A stretch of 64,000 nucleotides of DNA from positions 4,096,001 through 4,160,000 of the forward strand of contig OZ245015.1 in the NCBI GenBank assembly GCA_965223705.1, written 5' to 3'. Positions 32,424 to 43,168 of this stretch are shown here, one piece after another. The position numbers and the translations under genes are program-made. Source of the DNA: Myxococcota bacterium (GTDB lineage: Bacteria; Myxococcota_A; UBA9160; UBA6930). Numbering within the stretch: the stretch's first letter is position 1; each line of letters begins with the position of its first letter. The notes beneath the pieces were generated by a model, which made no database searches, was not told the DNA's origin, and was given only the letters and a program-made list of their open reading frames with translations.

Positions 32424-33026
32424 TCAGTATTTGCGGAGGAGGCCGCGGACGACCCCGCGGATCGTCACTTCCGAAGCGTGGAGTTCGATGGGGCGCAGTG
32501 CCCGATTGGCGGGCTCGAGGGTCACCTTGTTGCCGCGCTTGAAGAACTTCTTCAGCGTCGCCTCACTGTCGCGCACGAGGGCGACGACGGTTTGGCCGTT
32601 TCTCGCTTGGCTCGTGCTCTCGACGACCACGAAATCGCCGCTCTGGATATGCTCCTCGATCATCGAATCGCCTCGCACCTCCAGGGCAAACGTCTCCGAG
32701 GGTCGGTGCACCATTTCCCGCGGCACCGACAAGGTCTCCTGCACTTCGATCGCCTCGATCGGCGCGCCGGCGGCCACCAAGCCGAGCAGCGGGATTTCCA
32801 TGGTGCTGTCTGCCGAGCGCTGAATCGGCTCGACAGAACGCGAGTGATTCCACGACTTGCGCAGATAGCCCTTCGCAACGAGGTGGTGGATGTGCTTGTG
32901 TACGGTCGCGACGGATGACAGCCCGAAGTGTTCGCCGATCTCCTTGAGACTCGGCGAATACCCTCGGTCGGCTACAAAGTCACGGATGTAGTCGAAGATT
33001 TCGTGCTGTCGTCGTGTAAGCGCCAC
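32424..33026 (-). CDS. lexA: SOS repressor LexA
   Basis: Winged HTH, VAAG.P cleavage site, GDSM serine, TLKK lysine. Confidence 0.97.
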   Translation of the reverse strand: MALTRRQHEIFDYIRDFVADRGYSPSLKEIGEHFGLSSVATVHKHIHHLVAKGYLRKSWNHSRSVEPIQRSADSTMEIPLLGLVAAGAPIEAIEVQETLSVPREMVHRPSETFALEVRGDSMIEEHIQSGDFVVVESTSQARNGQTVVALVRDSEATLKKFFKRGNKVTLEPANRALRPIELHASEVTIRGVVRGLLRKY

Positions 33027-33399: not shown

Positions 33400-34599
33400 C
33401 TAGGTCCCCCCGGCCGCTGCTTCCGCCGCACGGACCACCGCGGTGATCGCTACGCCGTGGCGGAGCGCCAAGCGCCTGCAGTCGTCGTACTCCGCGGACA
33501 CCGAGGCCGAACCATCCGGTTTTTGGGCGATTTTGACCCGCACCGCCCCGTACTCCGTCGAGACGCGTCGGGATTCCCGGGCGAGCACCCACCGATCGGA
33601 CTCGCCGTAGCGGACGCCCAAGGTTCCGGTCTCGAGAAACAGACGCTCGGCCACAGGCTGACGCCGATCCGGCGGGCACAGGATCCGCAGCGCAAAGCCC
33701 GGCCGGTTTTTCTTTCCGATCGTGTGGGTAAGGGAGACGTCCACGGCTCCCGCATCGAGCAGCCGCTCCAGTACGTAGTCGTAGTGCTCGGGCTGAAGGT
33801 CGTCGAGCTGCGTCTCGATCACGCCGATGCGATCGGATCGGGCGAAGGGCACCTGGCCGAGCACGGCGCGCAGGACGTTCGGCAGCGAGCCTTCCCGCTC
33901 GTTGCCCGCGCCGTAGCCGACGCGGTCGATCACCATCTCGGGGAGCTGCCGAAATTCGTCGACCAACACGCGAAGGAGCGTCGCCCCGGTCGGCGTGACC
34001 GTCTCCCAAGCGATGTCCGCCGGGGCCACCGGAATGCCGCGCAGCAGTTCGAGCGTGGCGGGTGCCGGAACCGGCAGCGTGCCGTGCGCGGTCTCGACCT
34101 GGCCGTGCCCGAGGCTCGGCGGCGTCGCTGTGATCCGCCGAATCCCGAGCGCGTGGGTCGCGAAGGCCGCGCCGACGATGTCGACCAACGCGTCGACGGC
34201 GCCGACTTCGTGAAAGTGGATGTCGTCCACCGAGACGCCGTGAATCTTCGCTTCGGCCCGAGCGAGCGCGAGGAACATCGCCAGCGCCCGCTCGCGAACG
34301 GGCTCTTCGAGCTTCGCGCCCTCGATGCGGTTGCCGATCTCTTCGAGTGTGCGCCGACCGACGGGCTTGCCGCCGCCGCCGACAGCGACGTAGCGAGCGG
34401 CGATCGCGCCACGCATCACCTTGCGGACCCGCAGCGAAAAGGGGACGCCCAACCCGTCGAGGCCCTCGACGAGCTCTTTGCGCGACAAGCCGAGGTCGAA
34501 AAGAGCGCCGAGAAACATATTGCCCGCGATGCCGGAAAAGGTGTCGAGGTGCAGGATCTGTTCGCCGCGAGCGGCGCCCTTCGTTTTCTTCCGACTCAT
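33400..34599 (-). CDS. larC: Nickel pincer cofactor biosynthesis protein LarC
   Basis: SGIAGNMFLGAL, HFHEVGAVD, HG.LPVPAPAT, TPTGA, KKNRPG, EYDD. Confidence 0.93.
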   Translation of the reverse strand: MSRKKTKGAARGEQILHLDTFSGIAGNMFLGALFDLGLSRKELVEGLDGLGVPFSLRVRKVMRGAIAARYVAVGGGGKPVGRRTLEEIGNRIEGAKLEEPVRERALAMFLALARAEAKIHGVSVDDIHFHEVGAVDALVDIVGAAFATHALGIRRITATPPSLGHGQVETAHGTLPVPAPATLELLRGIPVAPADIAWETVTPTGATLLRVLVDEFRQLPEMVIDRVGYGAGNEREGSLPNVLRAVLGQVPFARSDRIGVIETQLDDLQPEHYDYVLERLLDAGAVDVSLTHTIGKKNRPGFALRILCPPDRRQPVAERLFLETGTLGVRYGESDRWVLARESRRVSTEYGAVRVKIAQKPDGSASVSAEYDDCRRLALRHGVAITAVVRAAEAAAGGT

Positions 34600-34630
34600 G
34601 ACTCGCGGCCTACCCGGGTTGCAGCGGCCG

Positions 34631-35383
34631 TCATCGCTCGCGGTTGATCAAGGTAGCCACGACCGCGGCGCTGGTTCCATTGTCGATGTTCACGACGCTG
34701 ACGTTCGACGCACAGGAAGAAAGCATGCCCAGGAGCGCGGCCACGCCGCCGAACGATGCGCCGTAACCCGTGCTCGTCGGCACCGCGATCACCGGGCGGT
34801 CCACGAGCCCGGCCACAACGGAGGGCAGCGCGCCCTCCATACCCGCGACCACGATGAGCACGTGCGCAGCCCGCAATTGCGCGAGACGGTCGAGCAGGCG
34901 GTGGAGGCCCGCGACACCGACGTCCTCGACACATTCCACTTTGTTGCCGAGGCGGCGTGCGACAACGGCGGCCTCCGCTACGACCGGTGCATCGGCGCTC
35001 CCGGCGCTCACGACGAGCACGGTGCCGACCCCGGTGATGGGGACTTCGCCGGGCCCCCACCAAAGCGTGCGGCTCGCCGCGTCGTATTCCGCCCCCGGAA
35101 AGAGCGCGAGCGTATCCCGAGCCAGTTCGGCGTCGACGCGCGTCGCCAGCGCGGGCTGATTCGAATCGCGCAGCCCGCGTGCAACCGCGGCCAAGGTCTC
35201 CGGGGTTTTTCCGGCGCCGAAAATGATCTCGGGCAGGCCCTGTCGAACCGCGCGATGGGTATCGACGCGCGCGCCCGGAACGTCGCGGAACGGAAGCTCC
35301 GCCAACGCGACCATCGCGTTCTCGGGGGAAAGCGCACCCCTCTGGACGCGCTCGAGAAGTTCTAGCAACTGCTCTTTTTGCAC
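34631..35383 (-). CDS. larB: Nickel pincer cofactor biosynthesis protein LarB
   Basis: DVGVAGLHRL, AGMEGALPS, PTSTGYG, VNIDNG. Confidence 0.94.
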   Translation of the reverse strand: MQKEQLLELLERVQRGALSPENAMVALAELPFRDVPGARVDTHRAVRQGLPEIIFGAGKTPETLAAVARGLRDSNQPALATRVDAELARDTLALFPGAEYDAASRTLWWGPGEVPITGVGTVLVVSAGSADAPVVAEAAVVARRLGNKVECVEDVGVAGLHRLLDRLAQLRAAHVLIVVAGMEGALPSVVAGLVDRPVIAVPTSTGYGASFGGVAALLGMLSSCASNVSVVNIDNGTSAAVVATLINRER

Positions 35384-35430: not shown

Positions 35431-35982
35431 CTACGGTTCTTCGGGGAAGAGCGTGACGGGAATGCGGTAGAGCCCTTCGCGGTCGCGCACGGCGGTTTCC
35501 ACGCGCATCACGCTGCCGGTGCCACGGCGAACGGCCGACACCGCTTCGAGGGCAATACTTCCGTCGCGCGGAACGAGCACCGGAACCGAGGGCCGGAGGT
35601 CTAGCGCCAAGAGCGTTCCGATGGCGCCGATCAAGTGCGAGGCGAGGATGTTCGCCACTTCCTGAAGCGCCGAAACGCGGAGCGCTTCGCGATGGTCGGG
35701 TCCGAGCAGCGTTTCGCCGAGGCGAGCGGCGGTACCTTCGGGAAAACGAATCGCAACGGTTCCGCGAACGGGCCCTTCGATCTCAAAGAACGCAGCAGCG
35801 CACGTGGGTTCCGGATCGCGCGCACCGACGGCGGAGAGAGCCAACACCTGCGGGACATCCATCCAGCACTGCTTTTCGAGAAGAACGGCGAGGGCATCCG
35901 CGGCGTGGCCCGCGCCGACGTTCACCATCTCACGAAGGCGATCGACCCGATCGGACAGAACGTGGCAAGACAGTTGCGTCAT
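35431..35982 (-). CDS. cheC: CheC-like phosphatase (DifG-like)
   Basis: Two E-x-x-N motifs (EMVN, EVAN). Confidence 0.8.
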   Translation of the reverse strand: MTQLSCHVLSDRVDRLREMVNVGAGHAADALAVLLEKQCWMDVPQVLALSAVGARDPEPTCAAAFFEIEGPVRGTVAIRFPEGTAARLGETLLGPDHREALRVSALQEVANILASHLIGAIGTLLALDLRPSVPVLVPRDGSIALEAVSAVRRGTGSVMRVETAVRDREGLYRIPVTLFPEEP

Positions 35983-37597
35983 AGGAGGTGGTGGAGATCC
36001 AATGTGAAGACCGGGCTGCCGTTCCCGAGGACAGTGAGCCCGGCGAGCGCTCGGGCCGCGTCGAGGAACGCCGGCACGGGCTTGACGTAAATTTCTTCTT
36101 GGCCCGCGAGCCGGGTGACCCGGAGCGCGATCCGCGCGCCGCGAACTTCGGTGAGAACCAGGATCGCCGGCCCGTCTCCCGGATCGCTGGACGGGAGCGC
36201 CAGGGTTTCGGCCAGGTCGATCACCGGTACGGGCTCGTCATCGATCAAGGCGAACGCTTCCCGCCCGCTGTGCTCGATCGTTTCCTGCGTCACTTCGAGC
36301 GCGCGCTCCACCTTGCCGATGGGGATCGCGACCATCTCGTTCGAAACGCCCACCAGCAGCACGCGCTGGACGGCGGCGGTGACGGGAACACCGAGGGCTG
36401 TCGACGTGCCGACGCCGAGCTGCGATTCGAGCTCGACCCAGCCGCCAAGGGACTCGACAGTCGCTTTGACGGCATCCATTCCGACGCCCCGACCAGAGAT
36501 CTCGGACACTTCATCGCGCGTGGAGAGACCGGGGCGGAAGACGAGCGCTGCGACTTCGCTCGCCGGAAGATCCTCAGCCAAATCGGCGTGGAGAAGGCCG
36601 GCGTCGACGGCGCGATCGCGAACGGATTCGAGGTCGATCCCGCCCCCGTCGTCACGGACAACCAGGCGAATCGAGTCTTTTTCGCGCTGGGCCGAGACCA
36701 CGATCTGCCCGACGCGATTCTTGCCCCGGCGGACCCGCTCATCGGGGTCCTCGATTCCGTGGTCCACCGCGTTGCGCACGAGGTGAACGAGGGGATCGCT
36801 CAGGCGATCGAGAATGGCGCGGTCGAGCTCGAGCTCCGCACCCTCGAAGACCACTTCGACTTTCTTGCCGGCGGCTCGCGCGACGTCGCGGGCCACCCTC
36901 GGCAGGGGGTCGAGCACGCGCAACAGCGGCGCTGTCCGCAGGGAAAGCGCCCGACGCTGTAGCTCACTGACCGCTCGATCCATGCGGTCGAGCCCCGACG
37001 AAACCGTCCCGCTGGATTCTTCGGAACCGATACGCACCTGCCGAGACGTCAGCACGACTTCGCCTACGGTCGACAGAAAGCGATCCAACGTCTCGGTGCG
37101 GACCCGGACGCTCGGCGTCGCCGTCGGTCCTTTCGCGGGCTGGGCGTCGGCTGGACCTACCGACGCCCGGGCGCTTTTTTTGGTTCTCGCCGCTCGTGGG
37201 TTTCGATCGGCGGCTCATCGCTCGGAACGACCGGCACGGCCAACGCCTCGAGCAGCTCGGCGCCAGCGGCCGGAACCTCGCGGCCCTCGCGAACCGTTGC
37301 CACCATTCCCTCGAGACCTTCGAGTCCGTGAAAGAGAGCGGACAGGCCCGCTTCGTCTATGTGTCCCTCGGTGCGATACGCGTCCATGCGATCTTCCAAG
37401 CGATGCGCCACGTCGGCGATGCTGTCGTAACCGATAGAGGCGGCCATCCCCTTGATCGAGTGAGCCATTCGAAAGGCCGTGTCGATCGCCTCCGCTCGGT
37501 CGGGATCTTTTTCCAGTGCGAGCAATTCTCTCGAGAGCTCGGCGAGATGCTCCGTCGCCTCCTCGAGAAAGAGCTTCTTATACTTCTCGAGATCCAC
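35979..37597 (-). CDS. cheA: Chemotaxis kinase CheA (DifE-like) encoded across a -1 frameshift at about 37175
   Basis: Hpt (FRMAHSIKG) in 37157..37597; SVRV..ETLD dimerisation, HLVRNAVDHG, DDGGG, SGRGVGMD and CheW-like domain in the -1 frame; joined product about 539 aa. Confidence 0.88.
37142..37181 (-). other. Candidate -1 programmed frameshift cassette
   Basis: A7 (37175-37181), 6-nt spacer, 9-bp stem GGGCGTCGG/CCGACGCCC with the 0-frame TAG in the loop. Confidence 0.65.
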
Positions 37598-37965
37598 TAC
37601 TCGCTCTTCTCGAGCACCTTCCCGAGCGTCGCGATTACGGCTTCGGGTTTGAACGGCTTCACGATGAAGTCGAGCGCGCCGGCTTCCAGGGCCTCGGCGA
37701 CGAGGGACTCTTGGCCGAGCGCGCTGCACATCACGATCGCCGCGTTGGGATCGACCTTCACGATGGTTTTGACCGCATCGATTCCGGATCGCTTCGGCAT
37801 CACGATATCCATCATCGTGACGGTGGGGTGCAGCTCCTCCCACTTGTCGACGACTTCGAAGCCGTCGGAAGCTTCTCCGACCACTTCCCAACCTTCCGGC
37901 TCCACAATGTCTCGGATCATCTGCCGCATGAACGATGCGTCATCGGCGACGAGGATACGCTTCAT
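37597..37965 (-). CDS. cheY: CheY-like response regulator (DifD-like)
   Basis: ILVADD, MDIVMP, CSA, KPF. Confidence 0.93.
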   Translation of the reverse strand: MKRILVADDASFMRQMIRDIVEPEGWEVVGEASDGFEVVDKWEELHPTVTMMDIVMPKRSGIDAVKTIVKVDPNAAIVMCSALGQESLVAEALEAGALDFIVKPFKPEAVIATLGKVLEKSE

Positions 37966-38429
37966 CAAAAACCTCCGTGCAGCGAGCTCTCTCCGACGAC
38001 GCCGCGCCGAAAAATCTCACCGACTTGTTGAATCAATTTCTGGGGATCCAGAATTTGCACGACGCGCCCATCGATGGGCCGACGCTCTGCGACGATCGAA
38101 CCGTCCCGCGCGCGCGAGGCGTGGCCGTCGACCAGACCGCAGACGCGGTCGACGGGGACGCCGATCCGAGCGCTCTCCTCGGCTTCGGCCAGGACGAGCA
38201 GGTGCTCCGGCGTCTCGAGATCATTGCGATCGATCTCGAACAAGACTTCCCGGTGGATTACCGGGAGCGCATCGCCGTGGTGATTGGTGATCGCTCCGGT
38301 TCGAGGCGGGACCGTGGGGATACACGCGAGCGGACCGAGCTCTGCCACCTCGGCGACGGATGCGATGGGAAGGGCGTAGGTCGTCTCGTCGACCTCGAAC
38401 AACAAGAGACGCGCCGCCGGACCGTTCAT
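37965..38429 (-). CDS. cheW: CheW-like adaptor (DifC-like)
   Basis: [16 protein letters not shown]...[19 protein letters not shown]. Confidence 0.85.
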
Positions 38430-39697
38430 GACTCGCTGCCGTTTCCCGCTCGGAAGCGCTGCGACAGTGTCCGCATCGCGTCCGCGCGCTGCGTCAAGGC
38501 TTCGGCGGAGCCGACGATCTCGCCCATGGAGTCGAGCTGCTGTTTCGACGCTCCGGCGACTTCTTCCATCGACGCTGCGTTCGTCTCGGCGACCCGGCCG
38601 ATCTCCTGCATCGACTGCACCATGCGTTCGGCGTCTTGCGACTGATTGTCGGCCTCGTTGAAGATCTCTTCGGCGCGCGCCGCGGCTTCGCCGACGGCAC
38701 CGCGAATCTGTTCCAGCGAGAGAGCGATCGTGTTCACGTCCTCGCGACCCTCGCCGATGACCTGGCCGGACTCCCGCATCTCGTCCGCCACGTTCTGCGT
38801 GTCGCCCTCGATCTCGTTGATGAGCTTCGAAATCTCGTCGGCACTTCGTGCGGCGCTCTCGGCGAGCTTGCGGATCTCGTCGGCGACGACCGCGAAGCCG
38901 CGCCCCGCCTCGCCGGCGCGCGCGGCCTCGATCGACGCGTTCAACGACAGCAGGTTCGTTCGCGACGCGACGCTCGTAATGATCTCGGTGATCTGGTGAA
39001 CGTGTCGGGTTTTCGCTTCGAGCTGGAAGACCATCGCTCCCGACTGCTCGACGCGTTCGAAGACACTGCGCATCTTTTCAATCGCGAGCCGCGAGACGTC
39101 GACACCCGAGTTCGCTTTCTGATTCGCTTCGGCCGCGAAGCCAAACGCTTCGCGCGCCCGTCCGGCGTTGAGCTCGATGGCGCTCGCCATTTCGCCCGCG
39201 AGACGCGTCACGTCCTCGATGAGGCGCTGTTGCTGTGCGACACCCGCCGCGACTTCGCCGACCGTGGTGCAGATCCCCTCGCCGCTGCTGCTGATCGAAC
39301 TCGAGGCACTCGCCAGGTGAGCGGCGGCAAAAGAAACGCCTTCCGACGTCGATTGGACCTCGCGCACGAGTTCGCGTAGCGCCTCGAGCATGTTCGAAAG
39401 ACCGGCCACGAAATCGTGTCGCTCGTCGGGAAACTGCGGCGACGCACGCAGTGCGGCGATGTCCGAAAGATCGCCTGCTCCCATCCGTTCCGCAGCGGCC
39501 AGAAGCTCGTGTTGGTGGTGCAGGAAACCGCGAGACGCGACGAATCCGGCGGCGGCGGCGAGGCCCGCGCAGAGAATCAACCCGACCCAAGCGGGCGCCC
39601 CCGCCCAAATCGCCCGGGTCGCCCACGGCGTGAGTGCGCCGAGCCACGCGATGGCGACGGTCGCAGCGACGAACTTATGGGTGAGTGATAGCCGCAC
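38426..39697 (-). CDS. Methyl-accepting chemotaxis protein without periplasmic domain (DifA-like)
   Basis: Two closely spaced TMs, [30 protein letters not shown]. Confidence 0.95.
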
Positions 39698-39760: not shown

Positions 39761-40729
39761 TTAGAAGTGCCGCCAGCCTGCGCCACGGCGAATGCGGCCG
39801 TTTCGGTAACGGAGGTTTCGCGCGGTGATGATCCCGATCTGACGAACTGGCACACCGATCCGAGCCGCGATGCTGGCCTCGCTCCCGGCGCGCGGGGACG
39901 CGGTGAAGAGCAACTCGTAGTCCTCTCCGAAAGCGGTCAATACATCGAGCGGCCGCTTTCCCAGCCGTTCGCAGGCGCGATCGAAACCCCGCCGCCGCGG
40001 CAGCGTCGCCAGATCGATCTCCGCGCCGACTCGAGAGGCTTTCGCGAGATGCGCCAGGTCGGACAAGAGCCCGTCGGAGAGATCGATACATGCGCCGACG
40101 CCCGGCAGACGCGCCAGGCGTCGACCGGCTTCGACGCGCGGTTGCGGCAGCGGGATGCGGTGCGCCGGGCGCCGCCCGGGGTCGGCGGCTCGCCGCGCGT
40201 GGGCGAGGCCCGCCTCTCCCAGGCGACCGGTCACGAAAACTCGCTGTCCGACCCGAGCACCGGATCGCGTGAGGGCCGTGCCGCGCGAGACGGCTCCGAC
40301 CACCGTCGTGTGCAGGGAGAATTGCCGCGCTCGCGTGACGTTCCCGCCGACCACGGGACAACCGAGCGATCGCCCGGCGCGCGCCGCGCCGCGCAAGGCA
40401 CCCCGCGCGAGCGCCGCATCGCTTGAGGGCGGAGCGGCGAGGGACAAGAGTGCGCCCAACGGGCGCGCGCCCATCGCCGCGAGATCGGACAGGGCGCCCC
40501 GCAGCGCGCGAGCGCCGATCCGTGCCGGTCGCTCGGCGTCGATGCGAAAATGAACTCCGTCGACGACGGCGTCGACGCTCAGAGCGACATCTTCGCCGGG
40601 CTTCGGGCGCAGCAGCGCTGCGTCGTCGCCGATGCCCAGGTGGATTCCCGACGAAGCCTCGGCGTCCTTGCGCGCCTCGCGCTCGATCTGTTCGATGAGG
40701 CCGAATTCGCCGAGTTCCCGGAGCTGCAT
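39761..40729 (-). CDS. thiL: Thiamine-monophosphate kinase
   Basis: GEFGLI, GIGDDAA, SDLAAMGA, DLSDGL, GEDYEL. Confidence 0.95.
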   Translation of the reverse strand: MQLRELGEFGLIEQIEREARKDAEASSGIHLGIGDDAALLRPKPGEDVALSVDAVVDGVHFRIDAERPARIGARALRGALSDLAAMGARPLGALLSLAAPPSSDAALARGALRGAARAGRSLGCPVVGGNVTRARQFSLHTTVVGAVSRGTALTRSGARVGQRVFVTGRLGEAGLAHARRAADPGRRPAHRIPLPQPRVEAGRRLARLPGVGACIDLSDGLLSDLAHLAKASRVGAEIDLATLPRRRGFDRACERLGKRPLDVLTAFGEDYELLFTASPRAGSEASIAARIGVPVRQIGIITARNLRYRNGRIRRGAGWRHF

Positions 40730-40759: not shown

Positions 40760-43168
40760 TCAGTTCTTGTCGGCGCGGGCCACCGGCGCGGGAACCCCGG
40801 CGTGGCGCTCCTGACGAAGCGCGGTGCCCTGAGATTCCGGCGATTCCTCCAGTGCGACCCCGAGGGCTTCACTCATGGATTCGATGGGAACAAAGCGCAT
40901 CTTCCGCGAAAGCTCCGCCGGGATTTCCGAGAGGTCCGCCATGTTCGCAGCCGGGATCAGGATCGTGGTCACACCGGCCCGGTTCGCGGCCAGGGCTTTT
41001 TCCCGAATCCCGCCGACCGGGAGCACCCGCCCTCGCAGGGTCACTTCTCCCGTCATCGCGATATCGGGCCGAACGGGAATACCCATCGCCATCGACACCA
41101 ACGCGGTTGCGATCGTGACTCCGGCCGAAGGACCGTCTTTCGGAATCGCTCCCGCCGGAATGTGAACGTGCACCTGCCGGCGGGACAACATCGTGGCGTC
41201 CCACCCGATGCCCTCGAGGTATGAGCGGACGTAAGTGAGCGCGGTCTGCGCCGATTCTTTCATCACGTCGCCGAGCTGACCGGTGAGAATGAGCCCCCGA
41301 CCCTGGGTCAGCGCCGTTTCCAGCCGGAGGACCTCACCGCCGGCTTCGGTCCACGCGAGGCCGTTCACGACCCCGGTCTCGCCCTCGGCCATGGCCGTCT
41401 CGTGGACGTGCTTGGGGGGGCCGAGCAAAGTCGGAAGCGTTCGCTGGTTGACACGAACGAGCGACGTCTGCCCTTCCGCCGCGCGACGCGCGGCCTTGCG
41501 ACACACGGCGGCGACCTGACGGTTGAGCTCGCGCACCCCCGCTTCGAGGGTGTAGTCCGTCACCATCGACGTCAGTGCGGCGGCGGACCAGTGGATGCGA
41601 TCGTCGGGGAGACCCGCCTCGCTCGTCTCTCGCGGAATGAGAAACGAGCGCGCGATCTCGATCTTCTCTTCCGGCGTGTAGCCCGAGAGTCGAATCACTT
41701 CCATCCGATCGCGCAGCGGCCGCGGGATCGGCTCGATCAGGTTCGCGGTGCAGATGAAGAAGACTTCCGAGAGATCGAACGGAACGTTGAGATAGTGATC
41801 GCTGAAGCGCGCGTTCTGCTCTGGATCGAGCACTTCGAGGAGCGCCGCTGACGGATCGCCCCGGTAGTCGGCGCCGATCTTGTCGATCTCATCGAGCATG
41901 AAGACCGGGTTGCGCGTCCCGGCCTGCTTGATGCCTTGAATGATGCGTCCCGGCAGTGCCCCGACGTAGGTCCGTCGATGGCCGCGAATTTCCGCCTCGT
42001 CGCGCGTGCCGCCGATGGAGACGCGAACGAACTCGCGGCCCATGGCCCGGGCGATCGAGCGCCCGAGCGAAGTCTTGCCGACGCCCGGAGGTCCGACGAA
42101 GCACAGGATGGGACCGCGCGAATCACTGCGCAGCTTCCGGACGCCTAGAAACTCGAGGATGCGGTCCTTGATGCTCGAGAGGTGGGCGTGGTCGGCGTCG
42201 AGGATGGCGCGCGCGTTGACGAGATCGAGGCGATCGGGAGATCCCTTCGACCAGGGCAGCGCGACGAACCAATCGAGGTAGCCCCGAACGACTTGTGCCT
42301 CGGGACCGTCCGGATGCATGTGTTCGAGACGAAGCATCTGCCGCATCGCTTCTTCGTACGCTTCGCCGGGCGCCCCGCTCTCTTCGATCTTGCGACGGTA
42401 CTCCGCGAGTTCTTCGATCCGGGGATCGACTTCGCCGAGTTCGAGTTGAATCGCGCGCAGCTGCTCGCGGAGAAATTGATCTCGCTGACCGCGAGACATC
42501 TCCTCCTTCGCTTGCGACTGGATCTCAGCCTGGACCGTGGTGACTTCGAGCTCGCGCCGCAGCATCGCGTCTACGCGACGCAACCGCGCGATCGGATCGG
42601 CGATCTCGAGAACTTCCTGGGCCTCGGCGAGGCGCAGGCGAAGATTCGATGCGATGAGGTCCGCGAGACGGCCCGGATCCTGGATATTGCCCGTAACCGA
42701 GAGAACTTCGGGCGGCAGGTGTTTCAGTGGAATCAGTTCCTCGACGTGCCCGCGCACAGCTCGAATGAGCGCCTCGGTTTCGACGCACCACTCGGGCTCT
42801 TCCGGTTCTTCGATCGGATGAACACACGCCCACCGAGCGGGTTCGTTCTCGACGAACGAGTCGATGCGCGCTTTGCAGAGCCCTTGGACGAGCGCCTTCA
42901 CGCGCCCGTCGGGCAAGCGCAGAATCCGCATGACCATCGCGACGGTTCCGACGCGGTGGAGATCTTCTCCTTCGGGCTCCTCGATATCACCGTTGCGTTG
43001 CGCAACCAACAGGACCAGCCGGTCCCCGGCGAGGGCGTCTTCGAGCGCGCCGATGGAGCGTTCCCGCGCGACGAACAGGGGGAGGACCATGTACGGAAAG
43101 ATCACCAGCTCGCGGAGCGGGAGGATCGGCAGCTCGTCGGGAATCACAACGTCGGAGGAATCGTCCAT
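40760..43168 (-). CDS. lon: Lon protease
   Basis: LPLR N-domain, GPPGVGKTS, PKDGPSAG. Confidence 0.97.
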   Translation of the reverse strand: MDDSSDVVIPDELPILPLRELVIFPYMVLPLFVARERSIGALEDALAGDRLVLLVAQRNGDIEEPEGEDLHRVGTVAMVMRILRLPDGRVKALVQGLCKARIDSFVENEPARWACVHPIEEPEEPEWCVETEALIRAVRGHVEELIPLKHLPPEVLSVTGNIQDPGRLADLIASNLRLRLAEAQEVLEIADPIARLRRVDAMLRRELEVTTVQAEIQSQAKEEMSRGQRDQFLREQLRAIQLELGEVDPRIEELAEYRRKIEESGAPGEAYEEAMRQMLRLEHMHPDGPEAQVVRGYLDWFVALPWSKGSPDRLDLVNARAILDADHAHLSSIKDRILEFLGVRKLRSDSRGPILCFVGPPGVGKTSLGRSIARAMGREFVRVSIGGTRDEAEIRGHRRTYVGALPGRIIQGIKQAGTRNPVFMLDEIDKIGADYRGDPSAALLEVLDPEQNARFSDHYLNVPFDLSEVFFICTANLIEPIPRPLRDRMEVIRLSGYTPEEKIEIARSFLIPRETSEAGLPDDRIHWSAAALTSMVTDYTLEAGVRELNRQVAAVCRKAARRAAEGQTSLVRVNQRTLPTLLGPPKHVHETAMAEGETGVVNGLAWTEAGGEVLRLETALTQGRGLILTGQLGDVMKESAQTALTYVRSYLEGIGWDATMLSRRQVHVHIPAGAIPKDGPSAGVTIATALVSMAMGIPVRPDIAMTGEVTLRGRVLPVGGIREKALAANRAGVTTILIPAANMADLSEIPAELSRKMRFVPIESMSEALGVALEESPESQGTALRQERHAGVPAPVARADKN

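Follow-up and report, generated by a model that had tools for sequence, protein, structure and literature searches.

A cheA gene split over two reading frames, with a candidate -1 frameshift signal, in an order of uncultured Myxococcota

The window analysed here is a stretch of 64,000 nucleotides (nt) from the genome of a Myxococcota bacterium (assembly GCA_965223705.1, contig OZ245015.1, positions 4,096,001 to 4,160,000 of the forward strand). Its minus strand carries a chemosensory operon whose genes, as assigned by Pfam, stand in the order MCP (methyl-accepting chemotaxis protein), CheW, CheY, CheA and CheC/CheX, which resembles that of the Dif-type operon of Myxococcus xanthus; the comparison is one of gene order. 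The kinase gene of this operon, cheA, is divided between two overlapping frames. The CheA domain order (Hpt, dimerisation, HATPase_c, CheW-like) is complete and all four domains score above the Pfam cut-offs, with the Hpt domain in one frame and the other three in the -1 frame. That cheA is recoded here, by the ribosome or during transcription, is very probable in our judgement; that the recoding takes the form of -1 ribosomal frameshifting at the A_AAA_AAA heptamer of the window is, going by the sequence, rather probable.

The zero frame opens at GTG 37597 and, read by standard decoding, gives a protein of 146 amino acids (aa) that ends in ...EPKKAPGRR. Its Hpt domain is complete and includes the phospho-accepting histidine, His46, within AHSIKG, in agreement with a first-pass annotation of this DNA that had described such a frame. 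The -1 frame is open from 37214, where it reads KKSARASVGPADAQPAKGPTATPSVRVRTETLDRF, and contains the remainder of the kinase (Pfam H-kinase_dim, E 1.1e-05; HATPase_c, E 1.7e-13; CheW, E 5.5e-17). The N, G1, F and G2 motifs can be recognised in the translation of the long product. As the -1 frame runs open from 37214 to the zero-frame TAG at 37159-37157, the two frames overlap by 58 nt (37157-37214), and the shift must fall within this linker segment. Joined at the two Lys codons, the predicted product measures 141 + 398 = 539 aa, with the junction ...EPKKSARASVGP. Both the confinement of the shift to the linker by stop codons and a kinase of about 539 aa with dimerisation, kinase and CheW-like domains had been claimed earlier, and both claims hold. 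The long product has no P2 domain, only about 21 codons lying between the A run and the P3 motif; in Myxococcus-type relatives 400-670 nt separate the Hpt match from the core match.

An in-phase A_AAA_AAA heptamer lies in the overlap, followed by a spacer of 6 nt, exactly as had been noted before, and then by a predicted hairpin. The stem had been described as a perfect one of 9 bp with the TAG in its loop. Nine Watson-Crick pairs are indeed found, but a closing G.U pair extends the stem to 10 bp (37168-37159 with 37151-37142, loop of 7 nt) and the TAG begins in the stem, straddling the last base of its 5' arm and the loop. The genome (4,559,241 bases in 2 contigs, 64.7% GC) holds 95 runs of seven or more A or T, from which the chance of finding such a run on a given strand of a 58-nt window is calculated as approximately 6 in 10,000. 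The 45 nt that start at +4 fold at -22.9 kcal/mol, a stability reached by 1.3% of the windows in the same gene, with a z score of -3.2 against dinucleotide shuffles. A genome-wide scan of the A/T runs of seven or more, based on third-position GC content (GC3) and open frames, flagged 3 places resembling gene boundaries, missed the cheA site itself and was uninformative. The coordinates of all features are collected in Table 1.

Table 1. The chemosensory operon and the parts of its split cheA gene (positions in the window).
Feature	Position	Strand	Evidence and remarks
MCP-like receptor gene	38426..39697	-	Pfam MCPsignal E 2.5e-36; first gene of the Dif-like operon
cheW-like gene	37965..38429	-	Pfam CheW E 1.8e-17
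cheY-like response regulator gene	37597..37968	-	Pfam Response_reg E 7.3e-27; stop overlaps the GTG of the Hpt frame
cheA, zero frame: Hpt (P1) and linker, 146 aa	37157..37597	-	TAG 37159-37157; Pfam Hpt E 3.7e-16
cheA, -1 frame, portion open 5' of the heptamer	37182..37214	-	preceding -1-frame stop 37217-37215
Slippery heptamer A_AAA_AAA, in phase as CC[A AAA AAA]	37175..37181	-	sequence; in phase in 124/142 distinct orthologous loci
Spacer from heptamer to stem, 6 nt	37169..37174	-	sequence, predicted structure
Hairpin, 10-bp stem and 7-nt loop	37142..37168	-	predicted fold
cheA, -1 frame from the heptamer: linker, P3 dimerisation, P4 ATPase, P5 CheW-like	35979..37181	-	Pfam; stop 35981-35979
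cheC/cheX-like phosphatase gene	35431..35982	-	Pfam CheC E 2.8e-11, CheX E 5.2e-09

The ortholog survey covered the whole order, represented by 193 genomes of uncultured Myxococcota, of which 160 contained an ortholog at E <= 1e-100. Loci were taken from 148 of these genomes (149 loci), leaving out 12 unlisted matches and one genome whose match lies at base 21 of a contig, and a scan of genome contigs added 21 more, with titles that say uncultured Myxococcota or "Deltaproteobacteria" metagenome-assembled genomes and, for a few, other phyla. Seven of the retrieved loci were truncated by a contig end and had no Hpt part; the remaining 163 had both parts, and 142 of them were distinct. The same split was seen in 124 of the 142 distinct loci, with the kinase core in the -1 relation to the Hpt frame and an in-phase A_AAA_AAA within the overlap; the run is A7 in 67 of them, A8 in 13, A9 in 13 and A10 in 31. 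In 15 others the two parts are in frame, and in 3 they stand in the +1 relation. The -1 form spans 9 family codes, at core identities of 55-72%. An initial sample had given the same picture: a kinase-core ortholog was present in 31 of 41 related genomes (61-71% identity), and 18 of the first 20 loci showed the -1 relation, the zero-frame stop following 3-39 nt after an in-phase A_AAA_AAA; the remaining 2, both in frame, lacked an A run. A comparison with orthologous cheA genes had been proposed as a check of the split and its slippery site, and both are thus found well beyond the window. Among more distant CheA/DifE genes (35-47% identity; relatives from Myxococcus, Anaeromyxobacter, Sporomusa and Methanosarcina), all those in which an upstream Hpt was located are in frame.

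In a quick IQ-TREE analysis of 70 core proteins the split clade received an SH-aLRT (approximate likelihood-ratio test) support of 100, with in-frame forms nested in it at separate places; the neighbouring clade is formed by Myxococcaceae and Anaeromyxobacter loci (41-46% identity). Frame state changed at least 13 times on a FastTree tree of 146 rows; both trees are without an independent outgroup root. The simplest history is a single origin of the split followed by repeated losses, which places the split at the base of an order-level clade of uncultured Myxococcota.

In all 124 split loci the AAA AAA is preceded by a codon ending in A, and in 119 of them the zero frame meets a stop no more than 39 nt from the heptamer (median 12 nt); control positions in these core genes, read in the +1 frame, had a stop this close in 21% of cases, at a median distance of 117 nt. 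AAA makes up only 26% of the Lys codons in 688 long open reading frames of the window's genome, which encodes both tRNA-Lys(CUU) and tRNA-Lys(UUU). As judged from dnaX, where both of these tRNAs exist the heptamer expected to slip well is one with AAA and not AAG at its end, and the final A of the cheA heptamer fits a genome that has tRNA-Lys(CUU) beside tRNA-Lys(UUU).

Three explanations other than recoding were considered for the split. That it reflects a sequencing or assembly error, or a recent pseudogene, would be suggested by the two-contig assembly, which points to long reads, and long reads miscount homopolymers. Against this, Logan contigs of 4 sequencing runs cover the site and all show A7, without gaps or differing letters (word depths 3.4-16.6); one sample supplied three of the runs and a second sample the fourth, within a single study that is probably the source of the assembly, and one of the four contig sets spans only 37081-37500. 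A search of the runs returned a single RNA run, with a 0.09 share of the words. The question of A7 or A8 in the read data, raised with the first proposal, is thus answered by the contigs in favour of A7. As an identical split also occurs in 124 distinct loci across many assemblies, and both halves keep intact domains and catalytic motifs, we regard an error or a decayed gene as practically out of the question. It is also most improbable that the two frames are separate genes, a stand-alone Hpt and a kinase core lacking P1 that initiates by itself, with the A run incidental. A GTG does follow the run in the -1 frame at some loci, but the first ATG, GTG or TTG of that frame in the window is TTG 37088, already inside the conserved P3 motif. 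A start-codon survey of 43 of the first 45 split loci (the motif pattern missed 2) found no start codon between heptamer and P3 in 16/43, the window included, and one with a Shine-Dalgarno (SD)-like motif in only 6/43; independent initiation of the core frame was rejected on these counts. Two genes would moreover leave unexplained why an in-phase A run is conserved in a linker of 65-78% GC, and in-frame relatives translate the same linker peptide: the in-frame locus L158 reads RKKSPELEPP, where relatives carry KKSPELEP in the -1 frame. Split CheA kinases do exist, as CheA3/CheA4 of Rhodobacter sphaeroides demonstrate (PMC6829392).

The third explanation, phase variation, holds that DNA slippage of the A run toggles the full-length CheA on and off and that the window carries an "off" allele. 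Homopolymers mutate fast, the frame state has changed repeatedly on the tree, and five in-frame loci retain the run: L120, L137, L142 and L157, all of genus g47 with A10, and L158 with A8. A switch, however, predicts a mixture of states among species, whereas the 132 loci with a run comprise 124 in the -1 relation, 3 in +1 and 5 in frame. Runs of 7, 8, 9 and 10 all preserve the -1 relation, from which it follows that the run grew by substitutions or by whole codons and not by frame-changing indels. The contigs of the 4 sequencing runs, too, hold A7 only, although contig sets hide rare variants. Phase variation is accordingly very unlikely. In the five in-frame loci that keep the run, the -1 frame stops 4-14 nt past it and the +1 frame stays open for 9-228 nt. 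As judged from their sequences, g47 and L158 would make the kinase by standard decoding and the free Hpt by a slip, a reversed polarity. These loci represent two evolutionary events only, and a conserved Pro/Ala-Glu motif, written NCT GAG, supplies the stop; the arrangement may be due to chance. In the three +1 loci, L133 and L152 (genus g42, A7) and L179 (A10), the run is read NAA AAA AAG, and by their sequence passing from the Hpt frame to the core frame would take a +1 shift or an mRNA that is one A short.

The signals flanking the run differ with its length. Downstream of the run, the 45 nt of the A7-8 loci (n=80) fold at a mean free energy of -22.7 to -23.0 kcal/mol (mean z about -1.8), and 35/80 of these windows lie at or below the lowest 5% of shuffles; the upstream 45 nt have a mean z of -0.50 for A7 and +0.11 for A8, with 14/80 at or below that level. 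In the A9-10 loci (n=44) the downstream means are -19.5 kcal/mol for A9 and -13.8 kcal/mol for A10 (mean z about -0.5), and 6/44 windows reach the same level. With its start 8-16 nt upstream of the run, an SD-like 6-mer is present in 42/80 A7-8 loci and in 5/44 A9-10 loci, against a background of 11.6%. The downstream z scores of the two classes differ with a Mann-Whitney p of 2e-7 on the raw values and of 5e-4 on genus means (26 vs 24), both of which overstate the independence of the loci; the contrast in downstream structure persists within family f11. In a subgroup of 24 loci a 9-bp stem starting 13 nt after the heptamer is 95.8% paired, while slid control positions pair in 33-57% of cells. 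Two of its pairs have changed on both sides, and its covariation score was reached by 0/500 shuffles, in a stem that sits in coding sequence, itself a constraint. As to the conserved hairpin that had been suggested as a check, downstream structure is enriched in the A7-8 loci and some covariation is seen in one subgroup; the A9-10 loci are without such structure.

Since the A7-8 loci show both signals and the A9-10 loci neither, the window, with its A7, most likely employs -1 ribosomal frameshifting; the long-run relatives may use transcriptional slippage. Slippage may also be proposed for the window itself, with the polymerase adding one A on A7/T7 so that mRNAs with A8 encode the kinase in a single frame and the ribosome does not shift at all. 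Programmed transcriptional slippage typically occurs on runs of 9 or more, with run length varying in the mRNA; the A7 of the window falls short of this length, which 44/124 split relatives have. The run of the window is the minimal one, exactly in phase and with a hairpin 6 nt away. Structure at the A7-8 loci is located mainly downstream, whereas the hairpins known to stimulate transcriptional slippage lie upstream, in the nascent RNA, and an SD-like motif at a fixed distance has no part in transcription. On the side of slippage are the 44 relatives with long runs and neither downstream structure nor an SD-like excess, and the three +1 loci, whose shift could be obtained by a one-base deletion in the mRNA. 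In E. coli, moreover, the efficiency of A cassettes climbs with the length of the run, from 10% shifting with 7 A's to 40% with 9 and 63% with 11, and runs longer than 7 are classed under transcriptional realignment (PMC3711429). On balance we consider slippage less probable than ribosomal frameshifting for the window, though quite conceivable.

Several observations weigh against ribosomal frameshifting at the window. A longer downstream stretch of 71 nt folds at a z of only -1.48, and the SD-like element of the window is weak (-3.3 kcal/mol, 45th percentile of its own gene). The nearest relative, L002, is in frame and has no hairpin, and the other two genomes of the genus (G001 and G002; 2.1-2.3 Mb, 75-87% complete) gave no kinase-core match, leaving the window's own hairpin with no counterpart among close relatives for a covariation analysis. 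Fifteen lineages in all are in frame. A search of three in-frame genomes (G009, G026 and G027) with this query found no stand-alone Hpt gene, all Hpt matches lying in frames of 541-916 aa; the free Hpt may therefore be dispensable. The relatives with bare A9-10 runs and the three loci in need of +1 fit polymerase slippage better. An independent-pairs test (7 pairs on supported branches) gave a median p of 1 and had no power, so that the association between run length and flanking signals, which shared descent could also produce, stays a lead. Finally, in the E. coli series quoted above even a run of 7 A's gave 10% shifting (PMC3711429), which leaves polymerase slippage some probability at the window.

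The assemblies G001 and G002 are about half the size of the window's genome.

Ribosomal frameshifting at this site would operate as follows. Ribosomes reading straight on from GTG 37597 would halt at the TAG and release the 146-aa protein, a free Hpt (P1) domain. A fraction of them would slip back by one base on the heptamer (37181-37175), where the two Lys-tRNAs can re-pair perfectly, a step that the 10-bp hairpin 6 nt downstream probably aids. The shifted ribosomes would go on to translate P3, P4 and P5 in the -1 frame, ending at 35979, with the 539-aa kinase as their product. What the sequences establish is the anatomy, the conserved out-of-frame run, the early stop of the zero frame and the enriched flanking signals. 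We infer that the slip is ribosomal, that its efficiency would set the ratio of Hpt to kinase and that the free P1 would be phosphorylated in trans, acting as a diffusible phosphocarrier or sink. The original proposal, a programmed -1 frameshift yielding a free Hpt protein and a full-length kinase from one gene, is supported by the A7 contigs, by the 124/142 loci, by the structure at the A7-8 loci and by the covariation in the subgroup.

A more tentative scenario concerns the reason for such a site. The cell may need free P1 and CheA at a set ratio, with P1 as a phosphocarrier or sink in a pathway that partly resembles a split kinase, and the linker site may have moved among three decoding solutions: ribosomal -1 frameshifting (A7-8 with SD-like motif and hairpin), transcriptional slippage (bare A9-10), and the reversed polarity of g47, with an in-frame A10 and a -1 stop 4-14 nt away. 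We hold this to be possible, though doubtful. A P1 on a polypeptide of its own can serve as a kinase substrate, as in R. sphaeroides, where CheA4 acts in trans on the His domain of CheA3 (PMC6829392), and in models split kinases give rise to ultrasensitivity and bistability (PMC3591291).

Elsewhere in the locus, the ATG of the cheC/cheX-like gene and the stop of cheA overlap (ATGA). A second CheA is encoded in the same genome (C1:1602255-1603406); its core is 36% identical, and it is an unsplit protein of 876 aa in one open frame. Immediately on the 3' side of the operon (33400-35383, minus strand) lie genes for a nickel-insertion protein (Pfam Ni_insertion, E 6.1e-129) and for a protein like AIR carboxylase (Pfam AIRC), similar to LarC and LarB from the pathway to the lactate-racemase cofactor, and beyond this pair a LexA gene (32424-33026). 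On the 5' side, also on the minus strand, are an AIR-synthase-related gene (39761-40729; Pfam AIRS, AIRS_C), a candidate for the ThiL, SelD or HypE type, and, upstream of the chemosensory operon, a gene for Lon protease (40760-43168).

Close parallels to the cheA site are found in dnaX. In E. coli dnaX the ribosome shifts by -1 at A_AAA_AAG, a site flanked by an SD-like element upstream and a stem-loop on the 3' side, and dnaX of Thermus thermophilus relies on transcriptional slippage on an A run. E. coli also makes two proteins from its cheA, CheA(L) and CheA(S), by alternative in-frame initiation, the short form being without the phospho-His part of P1. Like dnaX, cheA has a heptamer of Lys codons with a hairpin a few nt downstream, an SD-like motif in about half of the A7-8 relatives, and a long and a short product that share their N-terminus and come from one gene; within the family, too, short runs come with signals and long runs lack them. 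The two differ in that the unshifted product of cheA is the short one and the shift leads to the long one, except in g47 and L158 (in g47 the polarity is as in E. coli dnaX and the -1 frame stops at once), in that the cheA heptamer ends in A and not in G, and in that the gene is a signalling kinase. The E. coli CheA pair is alike in that one cheA gives two proteins differing in P1, but it uses an internal start, whereas here the short form is P1 alone.

OrfA-OrfAB of the IS3/IS1 insertion sequences (IS) is a further likeness, as standard decoding gives a short upstream product and a -1 shift, at A-rich heptamers with a stem-loop, fuses the downstream frame to it; cheA differs in being a chromosomal, vertically inherited operon gene with signalling domains and no mobile element. 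dnaX-type motif names appear in PMC3711429 and PMC4066793, and an A_AAA_AAA cluster of IS elements is stimulated by a stem-loop (PMC4066793). The R. sphaeroides CheA3/CheA4 pair shares with the present case a P1 on a separate polypeptide that is the substrate of a kinase core (PMC6829392; PMC3591291), a biochemical precedent for a functional free Hpt, but there two genes are involved, and a fused form and recoding are both absent. A frameshift in cheA has been predicted before, by FSscan, as a +1 hotspot in the E. coli gene; that site is unrelated, being +1, with another motif, in an intact gene, with no A run, outside the P1-P3 linker and with no conserved split (PMC2790909).

The literature searched yielded no report of -1 recoding in cheA. 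The main text of PMC3711429 and two of its three supplements make no mention of chemotaxis, CheA, histidine kinase or Hpt, and the remaining supplement may list gene clusters; the same terms are absent from the first 300,000 of the 449,034 characters of PMC5009743, and no -1 recoding of cheA was found in the portion of PMC4066793 consulted. The present analysis contributes a count across the order, relates the SD-like motif and the hairpin to the length of the run, and describes the +1 and reversed-polarity forms.

To our knowledge, few bacterial cellular genes have a conserved programmed frameshift (dnaX, prfB, copA and a handful more). If the present reading is true, a signal-transduction kinase would join them, conserved across an order of uncultured Myxococcota. 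A gene caller that follows one frame at a time would report cheA as two genes, for a small Hpt protein and for a CheA truncated at its N-terminus, so that mis-annotation of the pathway is possible in the 124/142 loci. The cheA family also provides a natural comparison at one homologous site, of short runs with signals and long runs without them. Recoding would constitute a new means of setting chemosensory stoichiometry, with one gene supplying both a phosphotransfer domain and the kinase that phosphorylates it, and would complement the solutions represented by CheA(L)/CheA(S) of E. coli and CheA3/CheA4 of R. sphaeroides.

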